64,000 bases of DNA, from NCBI RefSeq assembly GCF_056746865.1, contig NZ_CM163382.1; one strand, 5' to 3'. The notes beneath the pieces are model-generated. The model did not search any database and was not told the DNA's origin. It saw only the letters and a program-made list of their open reading frames with translations. This document shows positions 2,960 to 61,690 of this stretch, piece after piece (the first letter of the stretch is position 1; each line of letters begins with the position of its first letter). Position numbers and translations under genes: made by a program.

Positions 2960-3592
2960 TTATATTAATTCATATAATTTGGCGTAGTCGATAAGCTCTA
3001 CAATTGAATGCAATCCTAGCTTGCCATAAATATTAGATTTATGCGCACTAACTGTTTTATTGCTAAGTAATAACTTATCGGCAATTTCTTTATTAGATAA
3101 TCCGCTGACCAGATAACGTAATATCGTCACTTCACGATTAGATAGCACAGTGATCGTTGAACTATTCGTGCTACATTTATTGCTTTTTATATAGTTGAGC
3201 GTTTCGCTGGGAAAAAAAGTGTATCCGGAGAGGATCATCTGAACGGCATGAAAAATATCATTCTGATCATTGCATTTACTGACAAAACCGTTAGCACCAG
3301 CTTGTATCGCTCTGCCAGCATAAAAGCATTCTGATTTCGATGATAAAAATAATACTTTCACTGTGCTCTGGATTTGTTTGATCCTTTTCAGGAAGGTAAA
3401 ACCGTCTGTTCCGGGCAAGTCTATATCCATAATGATTAAATCAACAGGACGGGTTCGGAGATAATCGATGGTTATGCGATAATCATCCGTTTTCAGGACA
3501 ATTTGCAATTCACTGTTTTTTTGCAACAGAACTTCAATAGACATTCTGATGATAGGATGAGTATCCATAATGATCACCGACGTTGGTTTCAT
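2960..3592 (-). CDS. fimZ: LuxR-family two-component response regulator
   Basis: Start taken at MKPTSVIIMD (receiver domain with DLIIMDIDLPGTDG) and C-terminal LuxR HTH; ORF track gives a longer upstream extension. Confidence 0.85.
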   Translation of the reverse strand: MKPTSVIIMDTHPIIRMSIEVLLQKNSELQIVLKTDDYRITIDYLRTRPVDLIIMDIDLPGTDGFTFLKRIKQIQSTVKVLFLSSKSECFYAGRAIQAGANGFVSKCNDQNDIFHAVQMILSGYTFFPSETLNYIKSNKCSTNSSTITVLSNREVTILRYLVSGLSNKEIADKLLLSNKTVSAHKSNIYGKLGLHSIVELIDYAKLYELI

Positions 3593-3834
3593 AGTTACCA
3601 GTCTCATAGGATCGGACAATTTTCCGTTAGGGCGGGAAATTGTACTTTGATACATGAAAATACGGGTTTTCTTGATTCAGACGCGCAGCGGTGTACGTTT
3701 GTTTGCCGCTATAGCGAAATAAATCAGAAAATCAGACGCGGTCGTTCACTTGTTCAGCAACCAGATCAAAAGCCATTGACTCAGCAAGGGTTGACCGTAT
3801 AATTCACGCGATTACACCGCATTGCGGTATCAAC

Positions 3835-3911
3835 GCGCCCTTAGCTCAGTTGGATAGAGCAACGACCTTCTAAGTCGTGGGCCGCAGGTTCGAATCCTGC
3901 AGGGCGCGCCA
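3835..3911 (+). tRNA. argU: tRNA-Arg (anticodon UCU)
   Basis: 77-nt cloverleaf GCGCCCTTAGCTCAGTTGGATAGAGC...TTCGAATCCTGCAGGGCGCGCCA with UCU anticodon; 3' 45 nt repeated at 50407-50451. Confidence 0.95.
3867..3911 (+). repeat. attL core (3' part of argU)
   Basis: 45-bp sequence cttctaagtcgtgggccgcaggttcgaatcctgcagggcgcgcca repeated at 50407-50451; integrase gene adjacent. Confidence 0.85.
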
Positions 3912-3926
3912 TTACAATTCAATCAG

Positions 3927-5090
3927 TTACGCCTTCTTTATATCCTCCATAATTCCAGAGTGGGACATATTTGGGACATTATCACCAAAAATGTCGTCTA
4001 TTTTCCTCGCATGCTCTGTCAAATGATTAGGCGCAAGGTGAGCATACCTACGAACCATTTCTATGGACTCCCATCCGCCCATTTCCTGAAGCACTGATAA
4101 TGGGACGCCTGACTGAATCAGCCAGCTTGCCCAGGTGTGTCTGAGGTCATGGAAACGGAAATCTTCAATTCCTGCACGACGACAAGCTGATAGCCATGAT
4201 GTCTTGCTGTCGATGCGCATCTTCCTGACCGCAGGCGTTGATGTTCCATCTGCTCGCTTAGCCGCCTTGGTATGTACAAACACCCATTTGTGATGCTTGC
4301 CTATTTGATCACGCAACACTTTACAGGCGGTATCGTTCAGCGCCACACCAATGGCGCGGTTTGATTTGCTCTCTTCTGGATTCACCCAGGCAACTCGTCG
4401 CTGCATGTCGATTTGTTGCCATTCCAGATTTATGATGTTCGACTTTCTCAGACCAGTTGCCAGCGCAAACTTGACGACAGATTTCAGTGGTTCGGGGCAC
4501 TCATCAATAAGGCGTTTTGCTTCCTCCTTTTCCAGCCATCTGACTCGCTTGTTTCTGACCGCTGGTATCTTGATGACAGGCGCTTTTTCCAGCCACTTCC
4601 AGTCGCGTTCTGCAGCACGGAGAATGGCCTTTATCATGGCAAGATGCTTTGCCTTTGTCTGAGTTGATACTGGCTTTGGTTCATAAACAGGCAGTTCTTT
4701 ACCTTTCCTGATGGCGGCCTGAACTTTCTGTTTCCATATTTCTTTCGTCTTTCTGTTATGCATTCTGCTTACAGCAGAGTAAATCTTTGCCTCCGAGATA
4801 TCTTTAAGCCTTATACCCTCAAAATGTTCAAGCCAGAACTCAATCCGGCTTTTATCTGAATCGAGAGATTTTTTATCAGCTTTTTCCTCAAGCCATCTTA
4901 GGCAGGCCTCTTCAAAAGTGACATCAGGTAAATCCCCTAGCTTTTCTACTCGCCAGAGTTCTGCTTTTCGCTTGTCGTGCAACTCCTGAGCTTGCCGCTT
5001 GTCCTTTGTGCCAAGAGATTCCTTAATTCGTTTCCCGCCCGGGAGCGAATACGAGGCATACCATATTTCATTTCTGCGGAAGAGTGACAT
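3927..5090 (-). CDS. intD: tyrosine recombinase / prophage integrase (argU-site type)
   Basis: 387-aa ORF with C-terminal catalytic region (HDLRHTWAS...RYAH) immediately next to tRNA attL. Confidence 0.9.
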
Positions 5091-5317
5091 TTTCTTTCCT
5101 CTGTTATGCCATCACCCGCGCTCACCTGGACAGTATGCAGCGGAGACTGAAGCGCCGCAATGCAGGCTTGCCGTGTTGTGAGGTAAGGAGATTTTGGCTT
5201 GGTTGGATCTTTACGTGTTGCCTGTAGGCGGCCTGTTCGTATCCAGTTGGTGGCGGTTGGTCTGGATATCTTAAGAAACTGACAGGCCTCATCGAGTGTG
5301 AGGCTGTATGATTCCAT
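4946..5317 (-). CDS. xis: excisionase / AlpA-like HTH DNA-binding protein
   Basis: HTH segment [26 protein letters not shown]; overlaps int start; exact start and extent uncertain. Confidence 0.5.
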
Positions 5318-5567
5318 GGTTACCTCTGCTTTTTGAACGCATGTCACGTAACTTCTTAATGTGTTCTGCCGTTTCGATCTCTTCTGCTATCCGATCTGCA
5401 TCAGCTTTATTCACAGGTTCAAAGTCATGATTAAAGCGGAACATGCTGGCGATACATGTTCTGCCTTTTCGGATGTAGTGAACTTTGTTGTGGGTAGAAC
5501 GCAGGATTTTGCAGGGAGTGCCGTGGTGGTCGACGTACCAGGTGTTAGGAAAAATGATTCTGAACAT
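5289..5567 (-). CDS. hypothetical early protein
   Basis: ORF in leftward early operon between xis and exo; boundaries uncertain. Confidence 0.35.
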   Translation of the reverse strand: MFRIIFPNTWYVDHHGTPCKILRSTHNKVHYIRKGRTCIASMFRFNHDFEPVNKADADRIAEEIETAEHIKKLRDMRSKSRGNHGIIQPHTR

Positions 5568-5614
5568 TTTTACACCTCAGTTGGACGATGTTGAAATTTG
5601 CTGCTTTGAGGCCA

Positions 5615-5833
5615 TCATAGTCCCCATTGTTTGTTCTTAAGTTCGATCTCCTCCTGGCAACTTGCACAAGTCCGACAACCCTGAACAGCCAGGCGTCTTC
5701 GCTCATCTATCGGATCGCCACACTCACAACAATGAGTTGCGGATACAGTCTGGTAGTTCAGACGACGCATTTTTATTGCTGTATTGCGCTGTAATTCTTC
5801 GATTTCTGATGCTGAATCAATGATGTCTGCCAT
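5615..5833 (-). CDS. TraR/DksA-family C4 zinc-finger protein
   Basis: 72-aa product with CxxC-x17-CxxC (CCECGD...CRTCASC) typical of phage TraR-like proteins. Confidence 0.7.
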   Translation of the reverse strand: MADIIDSASEIEELQRNTAIKMRRLNYQTVSATHCCECGDPIDERRRLAVQGCRTCASCQEEIELKNKQWGL

Positions 5834-5925
5834 CTTCCATTAATCCCTGAATTGTTGGTTAATACGCTTGAGGATGAATGCGAACAATAAAAAAGGAGCC
5901 TGTAGCTCCCTGATGATTTTGCTTT

Positions 5926-6147
5926 TCATGTTAACCGTTCCTTAAAGACGCCGTTTAACATGCCGATCGCCAGGCTTAAATGAGTCGGTGTGAATCCCAT
6001 CAGCGTTACCGTTTCACGGTGCTTCTTCAGTACGCTACGGCAAATGTCATCGACGTTTTTATCCGGAAACTGCTGTCTGGCTTTTTTGATTTCAGAATTA
6101 GCCTGACGGGCAATGCTGCGAAGGGCGTTTTCCTGCTGAGGTGTCAT
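5926..6147 (-). CDS. hypothetical early protein
   Basis: ORF in early-left operon; start chosen at internal Met (MTPQQENAL); ORF track extends to 6243. Confidence 0.4.
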   Translation of the reverse strand: MTPQQENALRSIARQANSEIKKARQQFPDKNVDDICRSVLKKHRETVTLMGFTPTHLSLAIGMLNGVFKERLT

Positions 6148-6223
6148 TGAACAAGTCCCATGTCGGCAAGCATAAGCACACAGAATATGAAGCCCGCTGC
6201 CAGAAAAATGCATTCCGTGGCTG

Positions 6224-6415
6224 TCATACCGGGTCTCTCTCATCTGCTTCTGCTTTCGCCACCATCATTTCCAGCTTTTGTGAAAGGGATGCGGCTAACG
6301 TATGAAATTCTTCGTCTGTTTCTACTGGTATTGGCACAAACCTGACTCCAATTTGAGCAAGGCTATGTGCCATCTCAATACTCGTTCTTAACTCAACAGG
6401 AGATGCTTTGTGCAT
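6224..6415 (-). CDS. hypothetical early protein
   Basis: 63-aa ORF directly downstream of exo on same strand. Confidence 0.4.
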   Translation of the reverse strand: MHKASPVELRTSIEMAHSLAQIGVRFVPIPVETDEEFHTLAASLSQKLEMMVAKAEADERDPV

Positions 6416-6566
6416 ACCGCCTCCCGTTTATTATTTATCTTCTCAGCCAGCCGCTGTGCTTTCAGGGGATTTCTGATAACAGAAAGGCCGGGAAATACCC
6501 AGCCTCGCTTTGTAATGGAGTAGACGAAAGTGATCGCGCCTACCCGGATATTATCGTGAGGATGCG

Positions 6567-7247
6567 TCATCGCCATTGCTCCCCAAATACAAAACCAATT
6601 TCAGCCAGTGCCTCGTCCATTTTTTCGATGAACTCCGGCACCATCTCGTCAAAACTCGCCATGTAATTTTCATCCCGCTCAACCACGACATAATGCAGGC
6701 CTTCACGCTTCATTCGTGGGTCATAGTTGGCAAAGTACCAGGCATCTTTTCGCGTCACCCACATGCTGTACTGCACCTGGGCCATGTAAGCCGACTTTAT
6801 GGCCTCGAAACCACCGAGCCGGAATTTCATGAAATCCCGGGAGGTAAACGGGCATTTCAGTTCAAGGCCGTTGCCGTCACTGCATAAACCATCGGGAGAG
6901 CAGGCGGTGCGCATACTTTCGTCGCGATAGATGATCGGGGATTCAGTAACATTCACGCCGGAAGTAAACTCAAACAGGGCTCTGGCGTCGTTCTCGTACT
7001 GTTTTCCCCAGGCCAGCGCCTTAGCATTAACTTCCGGAGCCACACCGGTGCAAACCTCAGCCAGCAGGGTGTGGAAGTAGGACATTTTCATGTCAGGCCA
7101 CTTCTTTCCTGAGCGGGGCTTTGCTATCACGTTGTGAACTTCTGAAGCGGTGATGACGCCGAGCCGTAATTTGTGCCATGCATCATCCCCCTGTTCGACA
7201 GCTCTCACGTCGATCCCGGTACGCTGCAGGATAATGTCCGGTGTCAT
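6567..7247 (-). CDS. exo: lambda-type exonuclease (Red alpha)
   Basis: 226-aa product recognised as near-identical to lambda Exo ([25 protein letters not shown]...). Confidence 0.95.
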
Positions 7248-8029
7248 GCTGCCACCTTCTGCTCAGTGGCTTTCTGTTTCAGGAATCCAAGAGCTTTCAC
7301 TGCTTCGGCCTGTGTCAGTTCTGACGATGCGCGAATGTCGCGGCGAAATATCTGGGAACAGAGCGGCAATAAGTCGTCATCCCATGTTTTATCCAGGGCG
7401 ATCAGCAGAGTGTTAATCTCCTGCATGGTTTCATCGTTAACCGGAGTGATGTCGCGTTCCGGCTGACGTTCTGCAGTGTATGCGGTATTTTCGACAATGC
7501 GCTCGGCTTCATCCTTGTCATAGATACCAGCAAATCCGAAGGCCAGACGGGCACACTGAATCATGGCTTTATGACGTAACATCCGTTTGGGATGCGACTG
7601 CCACGGTCCGGTGATTTCTCTGCCTTCGCGGGTTTTGAATGGTTCGCGGCGGCATTCATCCATCCACTCGGTAACGCAGATCGGATGATTGCGGTCCTTG
7701 CGGTAAATCCGGCATGTGCAGGATTCATTGTCCTGCTCAAAGTCCATACCATCAAACTGCTGGTTTTCATTGATGATGCGGGACCAGCCATCAACGCCCA
7801 CCACCGGAACGATGCCATTCTGCTTATCAGGAAAGGCGTAAATTTCTTTCGTCCATGGATTAAGGCCGTACTGGTTGGCAACGATCAGTAATGCGATGAA
7901 CTGCGCATCGCTGGCATCACCTTTAAATGCCGTCTGGCGAAGAGTGGTGATCAGTTCCTGTGGGTCGACAGAATCCATGCCGACACGTTCAGCCAGCTTC
8001 CCTGCCAGCGTTGCGAGTGCTGTACTCAT
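7244..8029 (-). CDS. bet: recombination protein Bet (Red beta)
   Basis: 261-aa product recognised as lambda Bet; 4-bp overlap with exo. Confidence 0.95.
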
Positions 8030-9095: not shown

Positions 9096-10028
9096 CTATT
9101 CGATTTTTTTAACCATGTAGTTACGTCGTGATGTTCCTAATCTTTCATTGTGAATCTCAGAAACGCTTACTACGAGCGATATTCGTTCACCAACTTTATA
9201 TTTACTTTGAATTTCTCCTAACATATCAATCGGATAAGAAGCCTTTATTTTTCCAAGCTCGCTTGCAATCTCCAATTTCCCGTACATGGATAAAATAGCA
9301 AGTTCGCCTGATATATGCTCATCCGGTAGCTGAATGACCTTCGTTAAAGCTAAGCGAGCATTCAGTTTTTTTATATCTTCTGAAGAAATTGACACTTGTC
9401 TGGTACCATCACTTAAAGGTCCAATCCAAGTAAGATCAAAGTTAAGACTATATTTTTCGCACTCATTTATGATGTTTTTTAGGTTAGCTGTTGATTGCGA
9501 ACCAATTTCGGCAATTTTAGCCGTGAATGTTTCTTCATCAATGGATGAGAGTAGTGCAAAAATCTCCTTAACAGCATGACTGGATACTGTTTCGATGAGC
9601 TCGCAAGAACCAGTAGAAAAAGTAACACCTAACTTCGTCGAACCTGGACGCAAGTCTGCCAATCTCATGTCTAATGATTTTTTAACATCAATCGGCACAC
9701 GACTAGAATCTTTCCCAGATCCAAGTCGGTAAACTGCTTTCTGTACAAGGGATGCGAGATTACCTGAAATTACAGATAGAATATCTAACGGAATAGACCC
9801 GAAATCGACCAAAACACCTTTTAATCTCAACTCCATGAAATCACGTAAAGGATGTTGGTTATCGATTGCACGTTGTCTCTCTCGGAGATCGCTCAGATGG
9901 GAGTCAAGTGATCTAAATATAATGTCATCAGCAAATGATCTCCCCTTATTTTGAGCAAGCAGATCCACATCGCGTTGAATGAACGCAATTCGCTCCTTGA
10001 GGGAGTTGAATGTTTTTTCTTCGCTCAT
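9096..10028 (-). CDS. hypothetical 310-aa protein, second gene of repressor-linked cargo operon
   Basis: AT-rich ORF, start overlaps upstream gene stop by 4 bp; no recognisable motif; occupies the rexAB-equivalent position. Confidence 0.7.
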   Translation of the reverse strand: MSEEKTFNSLKERIAFIQRDVDLLAQNKGRSFADDIIFRSLDSHLSDLRERQRAIDNQHPLRDFMELRLKGVLVDFGSIPLDILSVISGNLASLVQKAVYRLGSGKDSSRVPIDVKKSLDMRLADLRPGSTKLGVTFSTGSCELIETVSSHAVKEIFALLSSIDEETFTAKIAEIGSQSTANLKNIINECEKYSLNFDLTWIGPLSDGTRQVSISSEDIKKLNARLALTKVIQLPDEHISGELAILSMYGKLEIASELGKIKASYPIDMLGEIQSKYKVGERISLVVSVSEIHNERLGTSRRNYMVKKIE

Positions 10029-10498
10029 AACATTACCCTCACGAGGCCTTTAGGATTCTCCTTCCGATCAAAACCAAACCACCCTCTCCAGTAACTTCGC
10101 CTTTCACTATAATCGATTTCTGGATGATTTTCAGGCAGCAAAAGAACGTCAATGCTGTAGTTTTCTTTAATAAAATCTCTATTTAACAATGAGCTGACCA
10201 ATGGCATCAGCGTGTTTGGCAAAGAGTTTAGGGCCAAATAATCGACGACCACGAGTATATCTATGTCATCAGGTTCAGGTTTCTCTGTAGTGAATGAACC
10301 ATCGATCCACACTTCAGAGAAACATAGACACTGCTGATTAACAAGTTTAAATTGCTCAATAAGCTGTATAAAATTACAGTATAGCATACTTCTTCTAACG
10401 GATTTTGGGAAGGTGTCGACACAAAGAGACTTGATGCCATCACTATCCATATCATGAAATCCTGCTGTAAGAAGAGGTGGGAAGCTAGGCTTTTCCAT
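10025..10498 (-). CDS. nucleotidyltransferase-fold (minimal NTase-like) protein, first gene of cargo operon
   Basis: Motif WIDGSFTTEKPEPDDIDILVVVD fits the G-S...D-x-D signature of Pol-beta-type NTases; 82 bp downstream of cI on same strand. Confidence 0.65.
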   Translation of the reverse strand: MEKPSFPPLLTAGFHDMDSDGIKSLCVDTFPKSVRRSMLYCNFIQLIEQFKLVNQQCLCFSEVWIDGSFTTEKPEPDDIDILVVVDYLALNSLPNTLMPLVSSLLNRDFIKENYSIDVLLLPENHPEIDYSERRSYWRGWFGFDRKENPKGLVRVML

Positions 10499-10579: not shown

Positions 10580-11269
10580 TTAACCATGCTTCCTGTACGT
10601 CTGCGGCATGCTCCCAATAACCTTACCGAAGATGAACACCCGGTTCATCTCGTCTTTCTCGATCGGGTCCCACGGTGAGTAGCTTTTGTTATCAGAGATG
10701 ACCAGCAGCTTATCCTTCATCATTTGCAGGCGCTTTACATGGGCTGTGTCGTCGTACAGAAACGCATAGATACCATCACCGTCGAAAGATTTAACTGTGA
10801 TATCAACGAACAGCAGATCACCTGGTTCGATCGTTCCTGACATGCTGTCACCACGCACGTTAATGATGCGGATATTTTCCGCCTTCCTACCATCGAACAT
10901 GTGACGAGCATCGTCAAACGAGTACTCAACCGAGCGTAGAACTTCTACAAACTCACGGTTGATGACTCCCGGCCCAGCACTGACTTCTATATCAAGAACG
11001 TCAATCTTGAAGTATTTGGAATGGCTGACAGTTGATTGTATTGGTTGCACTGTACTGTCTGACATATTTCCAACGCCAGAAGATAACCATTCTGCGCGCA
11101 CACCCAAAGCGTTCGCGATCTCCACGATTTTAGTTGTTTGATTAGCTTTCCCTGTTTCGATTTTCTGAATAGCAGCCTGGCTAACCCCGACCAAATCCCC
11201 AAGCGCCTTTTGTGTAAGGCCTCGCGCTAATCTGGCTTCTTTAAGTCTTTCTGAGAGTGTTGTTTTCAT
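10580..11269 (-). CDS. CI-type prophage repressor (HTH_XRE plus S24 LexA-like peptidase domain)
   Basis: Start at MKTTLSERLKEARLARGLTQKALG; C-terminal GDSMSGTIEPGDLLFVD...KRL autocleavage-domain pattern; divergent from cro-like gene. Confidence 0.85.
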   Translation of the reverse strand: MKTTLSERLKEARLARGLTQKALGDLVGVSQAAIQKIETGKANQTTKIVEIANALGVRAEWLSSGVGNMSDSTVQPIQSTVSHSKYFKIDVLDIEVSAGPGVINREFVEVLRSVEYSFDDARHMFDGRKAENIRIINVRGDSMSGTIEPGDLLFVDITVKSFDGDGIYAFLYDDTAHVKRLQMMKDKLLVISDNKSYSPWDPIEKDEMNRVFIFGKVIGSMPQTYRKHG

Positions 11270-11373
11270 AGTCCAAATGTACAACCAAGGTTTTATTCCA
11301 TCAAACGAAAATGGTTGTTGACTAAAAACAACCATAGTTTTAATCTTGATTCAAATTAACCACGGAGGTTGTT
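11270..11373. promoter_or_regulatory. OR-like operator/promoter region between repressor and cro-like gene
   Basis: Palindrome ATGGTTGTTGACTAAAAACAACCAT overlapping a rightward TTGACT -35; GGAGG RBS before cro-like ATG. Confidence 0.6.
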
Positions 11374-14474: not shown

Positions 14475-15977
14475 TTAAATTGCATCTGCAAACTCTGGGG
14501 TTTTTCGCTCAGGTATAATTGATGAGTTGCTGTTGTCACTTTTTTTATTTTCATGATTACGAATAGCCAATGACTCATTAAAGTCTTTTGCGACTGCTGT
14601 CTCAATAAATTCAATTTCTGAATCAGAGTGTTTTTTAACAGCTTCTTTGATCTCATCCAGAGTAACATAGAAAAACTCTTTTCTACGATTTACAAGATTG
14701 ACTCTCTTTTTATCGAAGACATCATGTAGTTTTTTTTCTAATGATGGAGCGTCCTCCGAATAAATCATGGCATGTACATCAAAAATAAAAGGAACAGATG
14801 CATCACCGAGCTCATTTACACGGTCTTGCGGATCAAGACGTCGTGTCATGCCTATTTTATAAACATTCTCCCCAAAAGAACCTATGTTCGAAATAATATA
14901 AACATGACCTTGTTTGGTTTGTTGTGCCATGGATAATGCTCTTTGATGCTTTGATTCAGCCTGCGACAAACTCTGTTCTAGTTCGGCAATGCGATTTTCG
15001 AGGCGCTGCTTCATGTCACCAGTAACTTTTTCCATTTCCTTTCTTGCAGCTTCAATTGCTTTTTTATAACGGCGCTCTTCTGCCTCTGCGTCTTGCATGG
15101 CCTTTTCTATTTCTCGTTGTGCACGCTCCTCCTCTCTCATTTGTGCCCTTATTTCTGCCTGTTCTTCTTTTTCTTTCTGTTTTTGCTCACGATATTCATG
15201 GGTAAGCCACAATTCCTCAAGTTTTTTATTGAGGTATTTAGTGTTTATATATATGTGATTTTGCTCGTTTAGTTTATTTATGGCCTCAAATGCCTTTGTG
15301 ATGCGTTCTTCCATTTTAGTGATGTTTTTCCACGTGCAATTGCTAATTGCAGCATCACATTCATTATTAAATGCTCTAGTAGTTAGCCTGATATTTCTGT
15401 CTGTCATTTTTTTACCCTCTGCTCGAGAGCCTTCAACAGTCCATTGGGTTGTACAATATACTGCGCCAGAGTGGGTTTTATCCCGCAGCATTAATTTCTG
15501 TTCATCCCTGATGGATTTTATTTTGTTTTTAAATTGCTCTGAATCTTCAAAATTAAAATGAGGTTCGTAAAATCCTAGTTCGGCTAGCTCAACATCTTCT
15601 GAATAAATAGAAATTTGCCTTACTAGTTTATCATATATTTCTTTCTTCTCTTTATAAGTTCTTCTTAGCTCTTGGATTTGTTTATTGATACCATCCATTT
15701 TTTCAATGGTGTTTGTTAGTTCATTATTGGCATTTTCTTTTACTTTTAGGGATTCTTCTTTTATTATGGAGCATTCTTGCTCTGTTTTCTCAATAAGCTT
15801 CTTACATTCTTCTTCTACATTAAAATAATCTGCAAAGCGAGATTTGTATTCTTCATTTTTTTGATTGCTATCACTTAATTCTAATTGTATTTTTTTGATG
15901 CGTTTGATTGCAGCTATATAAAGAACAAGAACAACCAATAAAAATATGATTGCAAGTAATAGAGGAGTTTGAGTCAT
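14475..15977 (-). CDS. membrane-anchored coiled-coil protein with C-terminal T5orf172/GIY-YIG-like domain (candidate defence/exclusion gene)
   Basis: N-terminal hydrophobic helix, long K/E-rich coiled coil, C-terminal GHVYIISN...YKIGMTRRLDPQDRVNEL...VPF motif; very AT-rich; opposite strand to surrounding early genes. Confidence 0.75.
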   Translation of the reverse strand: MTQTPLLLAIIFLLVVLVLYIAAIKRIKKIQLELSDSNQKNEEYKSRFADYFNVEEECKKLIEKTEQECSIIKEESLKVKENANNELTNTIEKMDGINKQIQELRRTYKEKKEIYDKLVRQISIYSEDVELAELGFYEPHFNFEDSEQFKNKIKSIRDEQKLMLRDKTHSGAVYCTTQWTVEGSRAEGKKMTDRNIRLTTRAFNNECDAAISNCTWKNITKMEERITKAFEAINKLNEQNHIYINTKYLNKKLEELWLTHEYREQKQKEKEEQAEIRAQMREEERAQREIEKAMQDAEAEERRYKKAIEAARKEMEKVTGDMKQRLENRIAELEQSLSQAESKHQRALSMAQQTKQGHVYIISNIGSFGENVYKIGMTRRLDPQDRVNELGDASVPFIFDVHAMIYSEDAPSLEKKLHDVFDKKRVNLVNRRKEFFYVTLDEIKEAVKKHSDSEIEFIETAVAKDFNESLAIRNHENKKSDNSNSSIIPERKTPEFADAI

Positions 15978-16370: not shown

Positions 16371-16789
16371 ACATTCGGTGTTTTACTTCGACAGCCAGAA
16401 TTGGGAGTCTCTATTCGTCTGGCGGCTAAAGGTGATATGGAAATCGTTATGTTTTGGCCTGAGGTAGTTGTAACTGTTGTAGCAGCTATGGATGTGATCA
16501 TCATGGTGTCCATTTACTGGGGTTGACGACATGATTTATCCGGCGCTATATTCTGTGCGTTGCCGCAAAATCGGCACACGGGATTGGCGTCCCGGGATAC
16601 TACTCAACGCATACCGCGTTAAGCGGTTTTTTTGTGCGCTAAGCACGGCTATGCCCAAATTATGGTGGGCTGTGTGAGGGCTTCTTCGGAAGCGCCGGGT
16701 TTGAGTAGCCGGTTACGCCAACCTTACACAGTTCACCACCAGTCGATTGGCGTCGTTGGTGGTGATGGTTAACCTGATGAGGTGATACT

Positions 16790-17398
16790 ATGACTACTCA
16801 ATTAGCATTCCACAAAACGACGTTTACCCCGATTTGCCACAATAACAGAATTTGGCTTACTGCCACTGAAGTTGGTTTAGCACTGGAATATGCGGACGAT
16901 AAAGCAGTTCAGCGCATTTACTCTCGGCACTCAGATGAATTCACAGATATGATGACAAGGGTGGTCAAAGTGACCACCCCTCGTGGAATGCAGGAGTCTC
17001 GAGTATTTAGCCTTCGCGGAGCCCATTTGATCGCCATGTTTGCTCGTACTCCTGTGGCCAAAGAATTCCGCCGCTGGGTTCTGGATATTCTCGATCGAGA
17101 AGTTCAACAATCCCCAATCACAAAACAATTCACTGATAACGAACTTTGCACACTCGCCTGGTTATGGCGAGCAAGTGATACGATGTTAACCGCCTGCCAG
17201 AACGTTACGCCCCTTCTTCAGGTCGCAGAGCATCGCGAAGCAGGTAGATTCACTTCAATCGAACAAGAATATCCTCGGATACTCAACAGGGCGCGAGAAA
17301 TCCTTGCCAGAGAAACGGCGCATGTAAAATTCCAACCGTGGCAGGATGATAAGTGGAGTCGTGTGTTACCATATTTCCGTCAGAATCTGTTGCAATAA
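16790..17398 (+). CDS. Bro-N/antirepressor-like protein
   Basis: N-terminal pattern ...RIWLTATEVGLALEY...RWVLDIL resembles Bro-N/Ant-type phage domains. Confidence 0.55.
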   Translation: MTTQLAFHKTTFTPICHNNRIWLTATEVGLALEYADDKAVQRIYSRHSDEFTDMMTRVVKVTTPRGMQESRVFSLRGAHLIAMFARTPVAKEFRRWVLDILDREVQQSPITKQFTDNELCTLAWLWRASDTMLTACQNVTPLLQVAEHREAGRFTSIEQEYPRILNRAREILARETAHVKFQPWQDDKWSRVLPYFRQNLLQ

Positions 17399-19827: not shown

Positions 19828-20211
19828 ATGCGTGATATTCAGATGGTTCTTGAGCGTTGGGGAGCGTGGGCGGCTAATAATCATGAAGATGTGACCTGGT
19901 CGTCCATTGCCGCCGGTTTTAAGGGATTAATTCCTTCAAAAGTAAAATCTCGCCCGCAATGTTGTGACGATGACGCGATGATCATTTGCGGGTGCATGGC
20001 CCGTCTGAAAAAGAACAACAGCGATTTGCACGATTTATTAGTAGATTATTATGTAGTCGGTATGACATTCATGTCACTGGCAGGTAAGCATTGCTGCTCT
20101 GATGGTTATATCGGGAAAAGGTTACAAAAGGCTGAGGGCATAATTGAAGGGATGTTAATGGCATTAGATATCCGGTTAGAGATGGATATCGTTGTTAATA
20201 ACTCTAATTAA
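19828..20211 (+). CDS. quuD: late-gene antiterminator Q
   Basis: Start at [18 protein letters not shown]; recognised as DLP12-type Q; followed by hairpin-rich qut/terminator region. Confidence 0.85.
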
Positions 20212-20227
20212 TATGCCAATTGTTTAC

Positions 20228-20263
20228 TAAAAATTATTAAAAATGGGGCGTTGAGACGCCCCC
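20228..20263 (-). terminator. candidate rho-independent terminator (minus strand)
   Basis: Stem GGGGCGT-loop-ACGCCCC with a T-rich tract on the minus strand. Confidence 0.35.
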
Positions 20264-20350
20264 AAAAATAAAGGGTAATATATAACAGAAGGTTTATATA
20301 GTTAGAAGCAAGGTTGTGCTTCTAAAGGAAGTGGCTTGAGGGAGCCACTT

Positions 20351-20390
20351 ATATGTTGGGGAGGCAACGCCTCCCGCAACATATCTTTTT
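20351..20390 (+). terminator. tR'-like terminator downstream of Q/pR' (possibly bidirectional with the porin gene)
   Basis: Near-perfect palindrome ATATGTTGGGGAGGCAACGCCTCCCGCAACATAT followed by CTTTTT. Confidence 0.55.
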
Positions 20391-20400
20391 CGTAATCAGA

Positions 20401-21483
20401 TTAGAACTGGTAAACCAGACCTACAGCAACGATGTCATCAGTATCAATACCAGCTGTTTTGGTAAACTTACTATCGTCAATTAAGTTGATTTTGTAATCA
20501 ACAAAAGTGGACATGTTTTTATTAAAGTAGTAAGTAGCACCGACATCGACATACTTGACTAAGTCTCGGTCACCATGAACACCAAGGTCTTTACCTTTTG
20601 ACTGAAGGTAAGCAACAGATGGGCGCAGACCGAAGTCAAACTGATATTGTGCTACTGCTTCAAAGTTTTGTGCTTTGTTTGCAATATGGTTATTACCAAA
20701 AACGGTCATATTCTGAGTTTCAGAATATGTGGTAGCCAGATAGATATTGTTCGCATCATATTTCAGGCCTGCAGCCCATACTTCCGCATTTTTGCCGGAG
20801 GCATTGAATTTGCTCTTACCATAGGCGACCTGACCGTCAGTGCGATCTGATTTAGCATAGGTTGCACCCACGCCGAATCCTTCATACTCATAAGTAGTGG
20901 AGAAACCGAAACCATCACCATTGGCTTCAGTTACGTCAGTGCGGTCATTTTTACCCTGATACTGAGCAGCAAAGTTCAGGCCATCGACCAGACCAAAGAA
21001 GTCGTTGTTACGATAAGTTGCAACACCAGTAGTGCGACCAGTCATGAACACATCTGTTTGGGTCCAGGTATCACCACCGAATTCTGGCAGGACGTCAGTC
21101 CACGCACCGATGTCGTATGCTACACCGTAGTTACGGCCGTAATCGATTGAGCCGTAATCACCAAATTTCAGGCCTGCAAATGCAAGACGGGTTTTGTCTT
21201 TGGAAGAACCTTGAGATTCAGCGCGGTTGCCTTTGAATTCATATTCCCACTGACCGAAACCAGTCAGTTGATCGTTGATTTGGGTTTCACCTTTGAAGCC
21301 AAGACGGGCATAAGTAGTATCACCATCATCTGCATCATTAGAGGAGAAGTAGTGCTTAGCATTAACTTTCCCGTACAGATCCAGCTTGTTACTGTCTTTA
21401 TTATAAATTTCAGCTGCCTGAGCAGACATCGCCATCAGTACTGATGCAGCTACAGCAGAAATTGCCACTGTTAATTTTTTCAT
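20401..21483 (-). CDS. nmpC: general outer-membrane porin (NmpC/OmpD-like), prophage cargo
   Basis: 360-aa product with signal peptide and C-terminal ...VGLVYQF porin ending; located between Q and lysis genes on opposite strand. Confidence 0.85.
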
Positions 21484-22056
21484 CGTGAGCCCTTTTTTTT
21501 GAACTATTATTAAAAAATGATGTCACTGCGCGATAAATATTCATCTAATCAATGTGATTATTTCAAGATGTAAGTTTTGGTTTCTCGTTTAATTTGTGAA
21601 GTAGATCTCTATTTTTATCTGAACTTTTTTCTATCGAATCCTATTCATGGCTCTTGGCTGAATAAAAATAAATCTATTAGCCAATTTATATTAATGGCTG
21701 TTATTTATAAGTGCTCTATAATTTGAAGGTTCAATTTAAATTGGCTAAAAATAACGCTGGAAATTATTTGTTGGTTATTTGTTGAGATTTGCTTATGTAT
21801 TTGTAGTGGTGTTTTCAATACTCGGTAGCATTCTCGCAAATATCATTTAGTGGTTTACGTACGTAAAAAATTGGTTATGCTGTTAAGAGTGGTTACTTCG
21901 TCACACAGCTTAAACCCGCCGTCGAGCGGGTTTTTCCATTTTTTGAGTCTCGATATTAGCTGATAACCCAATACCTGAGTTATTCACTGACTCCGAGTCT
22001 GTTACGTTTCGTAGTATTCCCTCAATTTACACCCGCTTTGTCTGCGAGGTGGGGTT

Positions 22057-22272
22057 ATGAAATCCATGGATAAGTTAACAACGGGTGTCGCCTATGGCAC
22101 CTCAGCAGGTAGTGCCGGGTACTGGTTTTTACAGCTGCTCGATAAAGTCACGCCCTCACAGTGGGCAGCAATAGGTGTGCTGGGTAGCCTGGTATTTGGC
22201 CTGCTGACGTACCTGACAAACCTTTATTTCAAGATTAAAGAAGATAAGCGCAAGGCTGCGAGAGGTGAATAA
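22057..22272 (+). CDS. essD: pinholin (phage 21 S-type)
   Basis: 71-aa two-TM product recognised as S21/EssD. Confidence 0.85.
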
Positions 22273-22769
22273 TGCCTCCATCATTACGAAAAGCTGTTGC
22301 TGCTGCTATTGGTGGCGGGGCTATTGCTATAGCATCTGTGTTAATCACTGGCCCAAGTGGTAACGATGGTCTGGAAGGTGTGAGACATAATCCTTACAAA
22401 GACATAGTTGGTGTATGGACTGTATGTTACGGGCATACAGGAAAAGACATCATTCCCGGTAAAACGTATACCGAAGCAGAGTGCAAAGCCCTCCTGAATA
22501 AAGACCTTGCCACTGTCGCCAGACAAATTAACCGGTACATCAAAGTCGATATACCGGAAACAACGCGCGGCGCTCTTTACTCGTTCGTCTACAACGTGGG
22601 TGCTGGCAATTTCAGAACATCGACGCTTCTTCGCAAAATAAACCAGGGTGATATTAAAGGCGCATGTGATCAGCTACGGCGCTGGACATACGCTGGCGGT
22701 AATCAATGGAAAGGACTGATGACTCGCCGTGAGATTGAGCGTGAAGTCTGTTTGTGGGGGAAACAATGA
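22272..22769 (+). CDS. rrrD: SAR endolysin (lysozyme)
   Basis: 165-aa product with N-terminal signal-anchor-release segment; recognised as R21/RrrD. Confidence 0.9.
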
Positions 22770-23233
22770 GCAGAGTAACCGCGATTATCTCCGCTCTGGT
22801 TATCTGCATCATCGTCTGCCTGTCATGGGCTGTTAATCATTACCGTGATAATGCAATCGCCTACAAAGAACAGCGCGATAACAAGGCCAGTGAACTGGAG
22901 AAGGCGAACGCCACCATTACTGACATGCAGCAGCGCCAGCGTGATGCTGATGCACTCGATGATAAATACACGAAGGAGTTAGCTGATGCGAAAGCTGAAA
23001 ATGATGCTCTTCGGCGCAAGCTTGATAATGGTGGTCGGGTGCTCGTCAAAGGAAAATGCCCTGTGCCATCCTCAGCCGAAACCTCCAGCGCCTCCGGCAT
23101 GGGCAATGATGCCACCGTCGAACTCTCTCCAGTTGCTGGACGAAACGTTCTCGGTATCCGGGACGGAATTATCCGCGACCAAACAGCATTGAGAACGCTT
23201 CAGGAATACATCAGGACGCAATGCCTTCGATGA
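22766..23233 (+). CDS. rzpD: spanin inner-membrane subunit Rz
   Basis: Start at [18 protein letters not shown]-terminal TM then coiled coil. Confidence 0.8.
22986..23192 (+). CDS. rzoD: spanin outer-membrane lipoprotein Rz1, embedded in Rz in +1 frame
   Basis: ORF inside Rz with lipobox-like VVGC and Pro-rich segment [11 protein letters not shown]. Confidence 0.65.
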
Positions 23234-40131: not shown

Positions 40132-43100
40132 ATGGGTAAAGGCAGCAGTAAGGGGCATACTCCGCGCGAAGCGAAGGACAACCTGAAGTCCACGCAGTTG
40201 CTGAGTGTGATCGATGCCATCAGCGAAGGGCCGGTTGAAGGTCCGGTGGATGGATTAAAAAGCGTGCTGCTGAACAGTACGCCAGTGCTGGACAGTGAGG
40301 GGAATACCAATATCTCCGGCGTCACGGTGGTGTTCCGGGCCGGTGAGCAGGAGCAGACACCGCCGGAGGGATTTGAATCCTCCGGCTCCGAGACGGTGCT
40401 GGGTACGGAAGTGAAATACGACACGCCGATCACCCGGACCATCACGTCGGCAAACATTGACCGACTGCGTTTTACCTTCGGCGTGCAGGCACTGGTGGAA
40501 ACCACCTCAAAGGGGGACAGGAATCCGTCGGAAGTCCGCCTGCTGGTTCAGATCCAGCGTAATGGTGGCTGGGTGACGGAAAAAGACATCACCATTAAGG
40601 GCAAAACCACCTCGCAGTATCTGGCCTCGGTGGTGGTGGGTAACCTGCCGCCGCGCCCGTTCAATATCCGGATGCGCAGGATGACGCCGGACAGCACCAC
40701 AGACCAGCTGCAGAACAAAACGCTCTGGTCGTCATACACCGAAATCATCGATGTGAAACAGGGCTACCCGAACACGGCACTGGTCGGCGTGCAGGTGGAT
40801 TCGGAGCAGTTCGGCAGCCAGCAGGTGAGCCGTAATTATCATCTGCGCGGGCGCATTCTGCAGGTGCCGTCGAACTATAACCCGCAGACGCGGCAATACA
40901 GCGGTATCTGGGACGGAACGTTTAAACCGGCATACAGCAACAACATGGCCTGGTGTCTGTGGGATATGCTGACCCATCCGCGCTACGGCATGGGGAAACG
41001 TCTTGGTGCGGCGGATGTGGATAAATGGGCGCTGTATGTCATCGGCCAGTACTGCGACCAGTCAGTGCCGGACGGCTTTGGCGGCACGGAGCCGCGCATC
41101 ACCTGTAATGCGTACCTGACCACACAGCGCAAGGCGTGGGATGTGCTCAGTGATTTCTGCTCGGCGATGCGCTGTATGCCGGTATGGAACGGGCAGACGC
41201 TGACGTTCGTGCAGGACCGACCATCAGATAAGGTGTGGACCTATAACCGCAGTAATGTGGTGATGCCGGATGATGGCGCGCCGTTCCGCTACAGCTTCAG
41301 CGCCCTGAAGGACCGCCATAATGCCGTTGAGGTGAACTGGATTGACCCGAATAACGGCTGGGAGACGGCGACAGAGCTTGTGGAGGACACGCAGGCCATT
41401 GCCCGTTACGGTCGTAACGTCACGAAGATGGATGCCTTTGGCTGTACCAGCCGGGGGCAGGCACATCGCGCCGGGCTGTGGCTGATTAAAACAGAACTGC
41501 TGGAAACGCAGACCGTGGACTTCAGCGTGGGCGCAGAAGGGCTTCGCCATGTGCCGGGCGATGTCATTGAAATCTGTGATGATGACTATGCCGGTATCAG
41601 CATCGGCGGGCGCGTGCTGGCGGTAAACAGCCAGACCCGGACGCTGACGCTCGACCGTGAAATCACGCTGCCATCCTCCGGTACCACGCTGATAAGCCTG
41701 GTTGACGGAAGTGGCAATCCGGTCAGCGTGGAGGTTCAGTCCGTCACCGACGGCGTGAAGGTGAAAGTGAGCCGTGTTCCTGACGGCGTTGCTGAATACA
41801 GCGTGTGGGGGCTGAAGCTGCCGACGCTGCGCCAGCGCCTGTTCCGCTGCGTGAGTATCCGTGAGAACGACGACGGCACGTATGCCATCACCGCCGTGCA
41901 GCATGTACCGGAAAAAGAAGCCATCGTGGATAACGGGGCGCACTTTGACGGCGACCAGAGCGGCACGGTGAATGGTGTCACGCCGCCAGCGGTGCAGCAC
42001 CTGACTGCCGAAGTCACCGCAGACAGCGGGGAATATCAGGTGCTGGCGCGCTGGGACACGCCGAAGGTGGTGAAGGGTGTGAGCTTTATGCTTCGCCTGA
42101 CCGTAACAGCGGATGACGGCAGTGAGCGGCTGGTCAGCACGGCCCGGACGATGGAAACCACTTACCGCTTCACACAACTGGCGCTGGGGAACTACAGGCT
42201 GACAGTCCGGGCAGTAAATGCGTGGGGGCAGCAGGGCGATCCGGCGTCGGTATCGTTCCGGATTGCCGCACCGGCAGCGCCGTCGCGGATTGAGCTGACG
42301 CCGGGCTATTTTCAGATAACCGCCACGCCGCATCTTGCGGTTTATGATCCGACGGTACAGTTTGAGTTCTGGTTCTCGGAAAAGCGGATTGCGGATATCA
42401 GGCAGGTTGAAACCACAGCACGCTATCTTGGCACGGCGCTGTACTGGATAGCCGCCAGTATCAATATCAAACCGGGCCATGATTATTACTTTTATATCCG
42501 CAGTGTGAACACCGTTGGCAAATCGGCATTCGTGGAGGCTGTCGGTCAGCCGAGTGATGATGCATCAGGCTATCTGGATTTTTTCAAAGGAGAAATCGGG
42601 AAAACACATCTGGCCCAGGAGCTGTGGACGCAGATTGATAACGGTCAGCTTGCGCCTGACCTGGCTGAAATCAGGACGTCCATTACGGATGTCAGCAATG
42701 AAATCACACAGACCGTCAATAAGAAACTGGAAGACCAGAGTGCAGCGATCCAGCAGATACAGAAAGTTCAGGTTGATACAAATAATAACCTGAACAGCAT
42801 GTGGGCTGTGAAGCTGCAGCAGATGCAGGACGGACGCCTTTATATTGCGGGTATCGGTGCCGGTATTGAGAACACCCCTGACGGCATGCAGAGTCAGGTG
42901 CTGCTGGCGGCAGACAGGATTGCGATGATTAATCCTGCGAATGGCAACACAAAACCGATGTTTGTTGGTCAGGGCGATCAGATATTCATGAACGACGTGT
43001 TCCTGAAACGCCTGACGGCCCCCACCATTACCAGCGGTGGAAATCCACCGGCATTTTCCCTGACACCGGACGGAAAGCTGACCGCTAAAAATGCGGATAT

Positions 43101-43629
43101 CAGTGGCAGTGTGAATGCGAACGCCGGGACGCTCAACAATGTCACGGTAAATGAAAACTGTACGATTAAGGGCATGCTGGAGGCGACTCAGGTCAGAGGT
43201 GACTTCGTTAAAGCTGTATCCAAATCATTCCCGAAACAGGCTGGTACGTGGGGTAATACGGAAACACCAAACGGGACGGTTACAGTCACCATCAGCGATG
43301 ATCATAACTTTGACCGTCAAATCATTATTCCGCCCATTATCTTTAACGGAATAGCGTATAGCGATCCGGGAAGTGGTAATAACCCGGGAGGTACAAGATA
43401 CACGGGTTATGGTTTTGAAGTTCGCAAAAACGGTGTATTAATCGCATCCAGAGAAACTAAAGGGGCCATTCCCGGTAGCTACAGTGCGGTTATTGATATG
43501 CCGAGTGGCAGGGGAAGCGTCACTCTGGAGTTTAAGATTTTCCAGAAAGGCAATCAGGGCGCAGGTAACATCACAGACTGTACGGTGATTGTGACCAAAA
43601 AAGCTGCTTCCGGTATCAGTATCCGTTGA
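40132..43629 (+). CDS. J: central tail fibre / host-specificity protein J
   Basis: 1165-aa product recognised as lambda gpJ-like over most of its length; C-terminal about 150 aa appears divergent. Confidence 0.9.
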
Positions 43630-59368: not shown

Positions 59369-60179
59369 AATGGTTAATATTGCTTGCTGGAAGAATTAAG
59401 GTAAAAATGGTTCATAGACAGAATTAAATAGGAAGTCTTGTTTCCAGATAACTTTATCATGAAAAAGAGATTTGGCTTGATGCGTATAAAGATTATGAGG
59501 ATAAATAGTTTCTCCACCATAAATGATGTTCTTTCCCGTTACACCGGAGAATTCATTGGCTATAATCTGTCGTTTAAGCCAGTGAATGACTTTACATAAG
59601 CATATTAATTTATCCTTAGAATCAGTTGTGTTAATTTCAGTAAGTTGTAAAATCTTTTCCCCATTATACTCAACTAAATGCCCCGGCTTTATTTCAATTC
59701 AACCACAATAACGATCAATGCTACTAAACTTTATTCTTCTATTGTTAGGTTTAATGCTGGGCATAAGATAAATTCGATGTGCTACGGCAGGGATCTTTTC
59801 TGTTAAGACATTTAATTGCTTAGAGTATTCATCTTGTAGTGTAAACCAAATTGAATGTAATTTGTATTTTGAGGCTACAATCGCGAGCCAATTAGACAGT
59901 TCCTCGTTCGTGCAAAAAACATTTATCCTGGCAGTTGCCATTCGTAATCCTTTTTATATAAGATTGTGTGAATGTCACCGAAACAACTTGATATGAATAA
60001 AATAGCTAAAGCGAAATGGATGACGTGTTACTAAAAAACCATTCTGAAAAGGAAGCCTGAATAAACGCGATGACGAAACTTCCACTCTCCATGTTTCATC
60101 AGAAAAATAACTAAATTCGATGTGGTTTTCATATAATCTCATTTCACGTAAGGTTCCGCTACCATAAGGGACCGCAATC

Positions 60180-61673: not shown

Positions 61674-61690
61674 TCAATCATCGAATCAAA

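Follow-up and report, generated by a model that had tools for sequence, protein, structure and literature searches.

An intact NmpC/Lc-type porin gene between Q and the lysis genes of a lambdoid prophage at argU, with a probable late promoter between the porin and holin genes

Background

Prophage porins of the NmpC/Lc type have been known since the 1970s-80s, and Lc of the lambdoid phage PA-2, NmpC of the prophage DLP12 and the small RNA IpeX are a textbook instance of lysogenic conversion of the outer membrane. Lc was first found as a protein produced by PA-2 lysogens. Another kind of phage cargo, the stx genes of Stx phages, consists of morons lying inside the late operon. According to work cited in PMC8544407 and PMC11677980, NmpC conducts as a channel and makes the cell more sensitive to phages and colicins. 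K-12, the usual laboratory model, is without NmpC function. IpeX is described in PMC12197685, PMC5069750 and PMC8065619 as a 167-nt RNA of DLP12 and PA-2 processed from the porin transcript; it represses ompC and ompF and lowers OmpC and OmpF, according to PMC5069750 and PMC12197685, and is also treated in PMC3333887.

Here we analyze a porin gene in a stretch of 64,000 nucleotides (contig NZ_CM163382.1 of RefSeq assembly GCF_056746865.1), hereafter the window. Judged from its sequence, this gene belongs to a lambdoid prophage of the PA-2/DLP12 type that sits at argU, and it encodes, as an intact allele, the lysogenic-conversion porin NmpC/Lc. The porin type, its position between Q and the lysis genes and its 3' small RNA IpeX are already known and ordinary, and the porin is probably functional. 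Two points that may not have been spelled out before are the probable location of the porin cassette between Q and the late promoter, and a possible independent exchange of the distal part of the allele.

Results

The porin gene is a single uninterrupted reading frame with an ATG start and a TAA stop, whose limits (Table 1) coincide exactly with the full-length porin that the initial annotation had placed on the opposite strand between Q and the holin gene. In profile searches, the product matched the whole of the Pfam model Porin_1 (PF00267; positions 1-337 of 337, E 1.9e-151) and scored 521 bits against the NCBIfam OmpC subfamily (cut-off 484), while falling under the equivalog cut-offs of PhoE and OmpF. 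Residues 24-360, that is the whole mature chain, aligned with the solved structures of OmpC, OmpK36 and OmpF (best E 5.8e-137), the motif PEFGG of the L3 constriction loop occupies residues 133-137, and the chain ends in GLVYQF with the C-terminal aromatic residue. The alignment with OmpC structures predicts a 16-stranded beta-barrel trimer with pore activity. By the Porin_1 match, the OmpC-subfamily score and the full-length alignment, the porin shares family and fold with the E. coli proteins OmpC, OmpF and PhoE and with Salmonella OmpD. "Porin OmpC", its label in RefSeq, and "OmpD", its label in phage records, are names at the level of the family. Unlike chromosomal OmpC, the porin is prophage-encoded, away from the ompC locus, and its loop L4 is shorter by 11 residues than that of the OmpC structure 2xe2. 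A PADLOC search gave no defence-system match for the porin.

The gene lies within a complete lambdoid prophage of about 43 kb, equipped with head and tail genes, at the tRNA-Arg gene argU, which is the DLP12 site; intD adjoins argU in the near-identical strain 118UI as well as in K-12. The lambdoid gene set extends from argU/intD to appY/ompT without a break, which rules out a chromosomal ompC paralogue mislabelled as cargo. Pfam matches to Q on one side and to a P21-type holin, a lysozyme and Rz on the other uphold the earlier view that the porin is cargo of the prophage, placed between Q and the lysis genes. The lysis cassette consists of the holin gene essD (22057-22272, P21 holin S), the endolysin gene (22272-22769) and an Rz reading frame opening at 22754, with Rz homology up to 23233. 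As a separate observation, bearing on the idea of self-exclusion by a prophage whose tail might use OmpC in the way that the PA-2 tail does, the J C-terminus of the prophage (42829-43626) groups with those of phages cdtI, Ayreon and ev099 and of Stx2c phages, a J type for which we know of no receptor assignment.

Table 1. Features of the porin region and its prophage, in window coordinates
Feature	Position	Strand	Basis or remark
tRNA-Arg(TCT) argU, prophage integration site	3835..3911	+	ARAGORN and Rfam
Q antiterminator gene quuD	19828..20211 (also open from TTG at 19813)	+	Pfam Phage_antitermQ, E 9.7e-54; RefSeq quuD
Intrinsic terminator of the porin/IpeX transcript	20239..20262 (hairpin 20262-20245)	-	GGGGCGUCUCAACGCCCC then AUUUUU; terminator scan; -13.9 kcal/mol, z -4.0
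IpeX sRNA region, 3' UTR of porin mRNA, four stem-loops	20239..20405	-	Putative ends, from the published 167 nt and the terminator position
Hairpin beside the porin stop codon, then CUUUUU	20351..20392 (stem 20351-20384)	+	15 bp, -21.3 kcal/mol, z -5.4
Porin gene (nmpC/lc allele)	20401..21483	-	Intact, 360 codons; product identical to RefSeq WP_000737271.1
Mosaic part of porin gene, about the last 230 codons	20401..21100	-	Sliding identity
Signal peptide	21415..21483	-	23 codons, cleavage after AQA (Ala-X-Ala); alignments to crystallised mature OmpC chains begin at residue 24
PnmpC, porin promoter region (-1 to -199)	21484..21682	-	2 differences from K-12; PA-2-like in A8 run
SigmaE-like promoter GAACTA-N16-TCACT, toward lysis genes	21501..21532	+	Motif read from the sequence; putative +1 at ~21532
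CRP site of PA-2 lc record J02580.1	21592..21612	-	Identical in window
Late promoter pR' homologue	21854..21888	+	-35 TTTACG 21854-59, -10 TATGCT 21876-81; putative start at A21888
Second CRP-like site of PA-2 record J02580.1	21888..21908	-	Identical in window; overlaps the putative late-transcript start
tR'-like terminator hairpin with T-runs	21912..21944	+	Terminator scan; fold -12 kcal/mol; homologous to the first VT2-Sakai terminator after pR'
Lysis cassette	22057..23233	+	Pfam Phage_holin_2_1, Phage_lysozyme, Phage_lysis; RefSeq annotation

Comparison with DLP12 of K-12 showed the same argU site and the same gene order (ybcN-ninE-ybcO-rusA-ylcG-quuD-nmpC-essD-rrrD-rzpD). DLP12, however, is a 21-kb remnant, set against a full-length prophage in the window, and its nmpC (b0553) is interrupted by an IS5 element 58 nt short of the stop codon, whereas the window copy is intact. 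With IS5 removed, 331 of the 360 residues are identical (92%), and the first ~400 nt of the porin gene as well as both flanks match K-12 at 98-100%. Lc of PA-2 (gene lc, J02580.1) has the same position and orientation beside the R/Rz lysis genes; at the protein level, identity is 90.7% (365 aa in PA-2, 360 in the window), and the 23-codon signal peptide is annotated in the PA-2 record as well. The 3' flank of PA-2 is 100% identical for ~227 nt, starting at the stop codon and reaching into Q at its 3' end, its upstream region is ~97% identical, and both annotated CRP sites are unchanged.

The exact protein is also found in isolated coliphages. Phages ev207, ev017, 2G7b and Perceval and the PhiR11_1/PhiR49_1/PhiR57_1 group encode a 100% identical porin in the same position between Q and the holin gene, annotated variously as OmpD, NmpC or porin. 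In contrast to the protein, the Q gene, spacer and upstream flanks of these phages are 4-7% diverged from the window, the AT-rich spacer differs by up to 19%, and in some of them the endolysin region is different. The layout as such, Q-porin-holin with the porin on the opposite strand, recurs in about 40 phage records. At the DNA level, the sequence recurs with 100% identity in many genomes of E. coli. Of 5426 complete genomes, 3333 had a match, and 2464 matched the Q-porin-holin region over at least 80% of its length, 295 of these with the K-12 IS5 junction. An uninterrupted region would thus appear to be present in about 40% of complete E. coli genomes, a figure to be taken as an estimate because coverage does not prove an intact reading frame.

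Sliding-window comparison revealed that the porin gene is a mosaic. Over about its last 230 codons, the identity with K-12 and PA-2 drops to 71-88% at the nucleotide level (71-86% over the last ~700 nt for PA-2 alone), except near the stop codon, where 67 aligned nucleotides match K-12 at 96%. Against phage Perceval, the same part shows 96% identity in 20400-20499 and 99-100% from 20500, while the Perceval flanks differ by 4-7%. Differences between the proteins are grouped into five short clusters that probably correspond to loops L4-L8, an assignment based in part on where the OmpC alignment has indels; since the differences from PA-2 Lc match those of the K-12 comparison, they too probably lie in L4-L8. 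Selection on the surface loops, whether by antibody, colicins or porin-binding phages, would be expected to produce such an exchange of alleles. We put forward tentatively, as a possible reading that we hold with less than even confidence, that the distal two-thirds of the gene (probably L4-L8) may be an allele cassette swapped independently of its flanks, and that the porin cassette as a whole may be set between Q and its cognate late promoter, with a spacer that interleaves three promoters.

Downstream of the porin gene, the 190-nt spacer that separates it from Q folds into four consecutive hairpins (whole-spacer z = -8.9 on the minus strand). The spacer is part of a region 100% identical to K-12 over 20205-20442 and to PA-2 over ~227 nt, and therefore represents the IpeX sRNA region of the literature, which adjoins the porin stop codon on its 3' side. 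Searches of Rfam, at gathering thresholds over the whole window and at E <= 10 over 20150-22100, gave no family match in the 3' hairpin region, so that the assignment rests on this identity and on the reviews. An RNA of 167 nt, with putative ends, would fit between the stop codon (20401-20403) and the T-run of the terminator (~20239). In K-12, IS5 parts most of nmpC from ipeX, whereas in the window, as in PA-2, the two are contiguous; IpeX can therefore come from the porin transcript, the route given in PMC12197685. The complement of the plus-strand hairpin beside the stop codon forms the first (5') stem of IpeX.

Upstream, the porin gene is followed as far as the holin gene by a spacer (21484-22056) with a GC content of 27-30% at 21500-21900, in agreement with the AT-rich upstream region noted initially, and 565 of its 573 positions match K-12. 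The K-12 counterpart of PnmpC drives nmpC transcription from a start site determined by 5' RACE, and is strong enough to drive the IS5 transposase (PMC11677980). The nmpC mRNA was up 16.5-fold at 37 C, among the most induced in that study (PMC8544407), and down at pH 4.4 (PMC10746267). On the plus strand, the spacer harbors a putative sigmaE-like promoter directed toward the lysis genes. The primers used for the DLP12 lysis promoter ("-121 to +650", PMC7918800 supplement) map to 21411 and ~22161-22181 in the window and delimit a 771-bp amplicon.

The window segment 21853-21935 is homologous to the pR'-qut-tR' region, with the StxS RNA, of the Sp5/933W type: it is identical to VT2-Sakai/Sp5 at 64 of 83 positions (E 6e-13) and runs collinear with the late promoter, qut and first terminator annotated in that sequence. 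QuuD and the Q protein of the Stx2 phage Sp5 share 79% identity over 126 aa. The pR' start of Sp5 was mapped by dRNA-seq, and the main terminator of that phage is tR', 258 nt downstream, rather than the first hairpin (PMC7547250). The late promoter of the window prophage is thus probably situated between the porin and holin genes, away from Q, and the porin would therefore lie outside the late operon. The hexamers TTTACG and TATGCT are weak by consensus (8/12), and the consensus promoter scan did not flag them. The tR'-like hairpin stands ~25-55 nt past the putative late start and 113 nt before the holin start codon, and Q-dependent read-through past it, from a start at 21888, is predicted from the pR' homology together with the cognate Q. 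Compared with Sp5, where the pR' block abuts Q, the window has 1.7 kb of porin cassette between Q and that block, is without the second terminator, and has the holin gene starting 169 nt after the putative late start. A motif common to the window and Lambda_2E9, ATATAACAG, was dismissed as aligning by chance after the comparison with Sp5 had given the real late-promoter homologue.

The alternative layout, with pR' just after Q and the plus-strand hairpin at 20351-20392 as tR', would make the porin a moron within the late operon, the Q-modified late transcript running antisense through it to the holin gene. Such an order (Q-pR'-tR'-cargo-S) is the usual lambdoid one and is present in VT2-Sakai, and Lambda_2E9 is apparently alike, with a reverse-oriented blc after a terminator near Q; the hairpin itself is real and carries a T-run on the plus strand. 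We nevertheless consider this layout improbable: the consensus promoter scan detected no promoter-like site on the plus strand of the Q-porin spacer, between Q and the hairpin, the homology to Stx phages ends inside the 3' end of Q (~20160) and picks up again only at ~21853, the sole homologue of the mapped pR' of a related Q is the one downstream of the porin, and in DLP12 the regulatory region of the lysis operon was placed, and studied, in the spacer between nmpC and essD (PMC7918800). Hence, of the strong palindromic terminator that the initial annotation had described 3' of the porin on the late-transcript strand, the hairpin is confirmed, but its attribution to the late transcript probably does not hold. 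Because the late-promoter homologue is downstream of the porin, this hairpin most likely ends the delayed-early transcript of Q.

Discussion

We regard it as highly probable, taking the explanation as a whole, that the window carries an intact NmpC/Lc allele in a self-contained cassette outside the late operon, acting in lysogenic conversion together with IpeX. The cassette would span about 1.7 kb (~20161-21850), on the strand opposite to the rightward phage transcripts, and bring a new Q C-terminus, IpeX, the porin and its promoter in between Q and the late promoter, the plus-strand hairpin shielding it from the Q transcript. The proposed course is that (i) a promoter of the porin gene itself, in an AT-rich spacer with the CRP sites known from the PA-2 annotation, would drive its leftward transcription in the lysogen, (ii) the 23-residue signal peptide would direct export of the pre-protein, which would join the outer membrane as a general-diffusion porin with the OmpC/OmpF fold, (iii) IpeX would arise from the 3' UTR, between the stop codon and the terminator (20262-20239), and OmpC and OmpF would be lowered, and (iv) the set of phages and colicins able to use the cell surface would change, and permeability may change as well. 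As IpeX lowers OmpC and OmpF, we propose that the lysogen would partly swap its own major porins for the phage porin. Effects of the kind that the initial annotation had suggested, on phage receptor availability or permeability, are on record for porins of this family. The integrity of the gene, its family, its identity to known alleles and to the IpeX region, the prophage setting and the homology of the late-promoter block come from the present analysis. Pore activity, the action of IpeX and regulation are taken here from the literature on homologues, whereas the RNA ends, the role of the plus-strand hairpin and the exact late start are inferred.

Expression of the intact window copy cannot, on this analysis, be assumed, since the intact nmpC of E. 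coli B has been termed a "quiescent porin gene" (a title cited in PMC3333887). The porin might accordingly be intact but silent cargo, held off by an AT-rich, probably H-NS-bound upstream region and without effect under ordinary conditions, and both the 27-30% GC of the upstream spacer and the tolerance of K-12 for the loss of the gene to IS5 would fit. We find silence unlikely, given that phages with flanks diverged by 4-7% keep a 100% identical protein, that Lc of PA-2 was discovered as a lysogen-made protein (established knowledge; J02580.1 has a mature-peptide annotation), that the K-12 promoter, which departs from that of the window at 2 of 199 nt, yields a mapped transcript and is strong enough for the IS5 transposase (PMC11677980), and that nmpC mRNA ranks among the most strongly induced at 37 C (PMC8544407). 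It might also be that the IpeX RNA is the mainly selected product, down-regulation of OmpC and OmpF being the point and the porin mainly compensating for the lost permeability. The 100% conservation of the IpeX region between the window, K-12 and PA-2, next to a coding region at 71-88%, speaks in favor of such a priority, as does the repression of ompC and ompF described in PMC5069750; we hold it to be rather doubtful, the porin reading frame being intact and its protein conserved across phages, and the roles of IpeX and of the porin are in any case not exclusive.

As a discovery the porin matters little, the exact protein being already present in RefSeq and in several isolated phages. The expressed, IpeX-linked conversion cassette that we favor would nonetheless mean that strains with an uninterrupted region may show an extra, allele-variable porin together with reduced OmpC and OmpF, which bears on phage host range (including phage therapy), on colicin sensitivity and possibly on antibiotic permeability. 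Within the 570-bp AT-rich spacer, PnmpC would point leftwards and the sigmaE-type promoter and pR' rightwards, an interleaving that, if true, could couple envelope stress, porin supply and leaky expression of the lysis genes. The corrected placement of the late promoter should be useful for annotating DLP12-type prophages.

A porin gene between the Q antiterminator and holin genes

A single unbroken 360-codon ORF was read at 20401-21483 (-), and it is matched over its whole length by the Pfam Gram-negative porin model PF00267 (E 1.9e-151). Its product exceeded the NCBIfam cut-off for the OmpC subfamily and did not reach the PhoE and OmpF equivalog cut-offs. Residues 1-23 form a typical signal peptide ending in AQA, while residue 24 to the C-terminus aligns with crystallised OmpC, OmpK36, PhoE and OmpF chains (E down to 5.8e-137); PEFGG is found in L3, and the chain ends in YQF. 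The protein is very probably a porin of the NmpC/Lc type. The initial annotation had described a full-length porin gene lying between Q and the holin gene, on the opposite strand to both, with an AT-rich upstream region; the ORF, the PF00267 match, the structural alignment from residue 24, the two neighbours (Table) and the 27-30% GC of the 573-bp upstream spacer confirm each point and the observation as a whole.

Table. Features of the prophage in the window
Feature	Position	Strand	Basis or remark
tRNA-Arg(TCT)	3835-3911		prophage integration site argU; intD next
isrK	16561-16633	+	
C4 antisense RNA	16658-16743	+	
Bro-N/P22_AR_C antirepressor gene	16790-17398	+	
Q antiterminator	19813/19828-20211	+	profile search
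Late promoter -35 TTTACG	21854-21859	+	inferred
Late promoter -10 TATGCT	21876-21881	+	inferred
Late start	about 21888	+	predicted
Terminator-like hairpin	21912-21933, T-runs to 21944	+	terminator scan, folding
Phage-21-type holin	22057-22272	+	profile search; lysozyme, then Rz next

The surrounding DNA is E. coli chromosome, in which intD is followed by a complete lambdoid gene set (early, replication, nin, lysis, head and tail) ending at ~47.4 kb, ahead of appY and ompT. DLP12 of K-12 occupies the same argU site and shares the local order quuD-nmpC-essD, but is a 21-kb remnant whose nmpC is interrupted by IS5, 58 nt ahead of the stop codon, whereas the copy studied here is uninterrupted. The tail-tip gene J is intact (40132-43629 (+), 1165 codons), so the prophage may be fully functional; RefSeq marks J as frameshifted in the 99%-identical strain 118UI. 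To our knowledge, the J C-terminus of this prophage belongs to a class without a known receptor.

Occurrence and mosaic structure

The porin feature has been described before. Copies 100% identical over the 1860 nt from Q to holin recur in many complete E. coli genomes, and some version of the region is found in 3333 of 5426. Strain 118UI carries an identical gene (RefSeq annotation WP_000737271.1, 'porin OmpC'), and the protein is 100% identical in the isolated lambdoid phages ev207, ev017, 2G7b, Perceval, PhiR11_1 and others. Identity falls to 90.7% with Lc of phage PA-2 (J02580.1), to 331/360 residues with K-12 NmpC once IS5 is taken out and the halves rejoined, and to 81% with NmpC of phage P7. 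Only 295 of the 5426 genomes have the K-12 IS5 junction, against 2464 with at least 80% of the Q-porin-holin region, a coverage that does not by itself prove an intact reading frame; outside K-12 lineages, uninterrupted copies thus appear to be the usual state.

The flanks share 98-100% identity with K-12 and PA-2, the last ~700 nt of the gene only 71-88%; compared with phage Perceval the pattern is reversed, with the coding region 99-100% identical from 20500 and the flanks 93-96%. Residue differences from K-12 NmpC fall in five short clusters, which we take, from the general OmpF/OmpC fold, to be external loops L4-L8; in three of them (L4, L5 and L7 regions) the alignment to OmpC structures has indels. 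Since mosaic porin genes with variable loops are familiar, the mosaicism is a detail here and not a discovery.

Probable placement of the late promoter

Between porin and holin, 21853-21935 matches the Stx2 phage VT2-Sakai (Sp5) at 64/83 positions (E 6e-13), and the match is collinear with the late promoter, Q-utilisation site and first terminator annotated there. By dRNA-seq, pR' of Sp5 starts 258 nt ahead of tR' (PMC7547250), a spacing that agrees with the promoter annotated in the Sp5 record. QuuD and Sp5 Q share 79% identity over 126 residues, the Sp5 protein being longer by 18, and DNA homology to Stx-phage Q genes ends at ~20160 and restarts at ~21853. This gap, together with the Sp5-like pR' block, suggests that ~20161-21850 is probably an inserted 1.7-kb cassette separating Q from its late promoter; by homology, we read its contents as a new Q C-terminus, the sRNA IpeX, the porin gene and the porin's promoter. 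On this homology the late promoter probably lies between the porin and holin genes, which would leave the porin gene outside the late operon.

The DLP12 lysis-promoter literature is consistent with this placement. The regulatory region cloned as '-121 to +650' (PMC7918800 and supplement) has primers mapping to 21411 to about 22181 (771 bp), which sets its +1 near 21532 (+), just after a sigmaE-like motif, GAACTA-N16-TCACT (21501-21532 (+)), aimed at the lysis genes. Relative to the porin gene, which runs the other way, the motif is 18-44 nt ahead of the start codon, within the porin leader/promoter region. The 573-bp spacer would accordingly hold the porin promoter PnmpC directed leftwards and, directed rightwards, a sigmaE-type promoter plus the pR' homologue.

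The palindromic terminator proposed 3' of the porin gene is recognisable as hairpin 20351-20384 (-21.3 kcal/mol), the stem-loop closest to the porin stop codon, with its T-run CUUUUU on the + strand. The 'late-transcript' label given to that strand probably does not hold, since the pR' homologue lies at 21853-21935 and the promoter scan of the + strand from Q to the porin gene detected nothing promoter-like; the earlier interpretation is otherwise supported. The + strand hairpin 20351-20392 would instead stop the Q (delayed-early) transcript ahead of antisense entry into the porin gene.

IpeX, regulation and proposed mechanism

The 190-nt spacer from porin stop codon to Q is 100% identical to K-12 and PA-2 and holds four consecutive stem-loops (fold z = -8.9 on the porin strand), the last of which on that strand (20262-20245), followed by a T-run, scores as an intrinsic terminator by terminator scan and folding. 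An Rfam search of this hairpin region gave no match. PMC12197685, PMC5069750, PMC8065619 and PMC3333887 describe IpeX of DLP12/PA-2 as a 167-nt sRNA, part of the porin transcript and then processed, that represses ompC and ompF. The ~165 nt from stop codon to T-run fits this length, the RNA ends here being predicted.

Upstream of the porin gene, the nearest 199 nt differ at two positions from K-12, where the equivalent stretch contains an active sigma-70 promoter with its start mapped by 5'-RACE (PMC11677980). The PA-2 record annotates two CRP sites, and the window has the same sequence at both (21592-21612 and 21888-21908). A shift to 37 C raises K-12 nmpC mRNA 16.5-fold (PMC8544407), and the level falls at pH 4.4 (PMC10746267); nmpC is a RybB target (PMC3333887), and an intact nmpC of E. 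coli B is termed 'quiescent' in a title cited in the same source. Channel conductance, a contribution to heat resistance of strain AW1.7 and raised sensitivity to colicins and phages are attributed to NmpC in work cited in PMC8544407 and PMC11677980. The experimental checks proposed with the initial annotation have thus largely been done already, on homologues.

Most likely, a lysogen would transcribe the cassette from PnmpC and would export and insert the general porin, while IpeX from the same transcript would lower OmpC/OmpF; the outcome would be a partial exchange of surface porins, altering phage and colicin receptor availability. We hold each functional step less firmly than the identity of the gene.

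Other cargo and related loci

The prophage carries a second cargo gene, a 500-aa ORF at 14475-15977 (-) situated between ren and the antirepressor module; its product matches PD-Lambda-1, an anti-phage defence protein (PADLOC E 1.9e-198; Pfam DUF4041 + T5orf172/MUG113). Two co-oriented ORFs at 9096-10498 (-), of 310 aa and 157 aa (the latter with DUF6932), occupy the lambda rexAB position immediately after the S24-type repressor gene (10580-11335); they match the two components of PDC-M63, a PADLOC candidate system (E 4e-42 and 7e-43). The segment 16561-17398 (+) is a P1/P7-type c4-ant immunity module within the nin region. Outside the prophage, beyond nfrAB, two ISEc1 (ISAs1-family) copies at 60179-63620 surround small ORFs, one encoding a SUKH-3 immunity-type protein.

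In the phage Lambda_2E9 record, 3394-4074 shows a related Q gene, then a short promoter/terminator-like stretch, then blc, a lipocalin gene in reverse orientation. This too is outer-membrane cargo placed between Q and the lysis genes, in a layout unlike that of the porin cassette. The record of phage 434 isolate 434B labels 4408-7999 'region of 434 nonhomology'; that stretch is the K-12 DLP12 segment quuD-nmpC::IS5-essD, and the laboratory phage evidently acquired the Q-porin-lysis region of the cryptic prophage by recombination.
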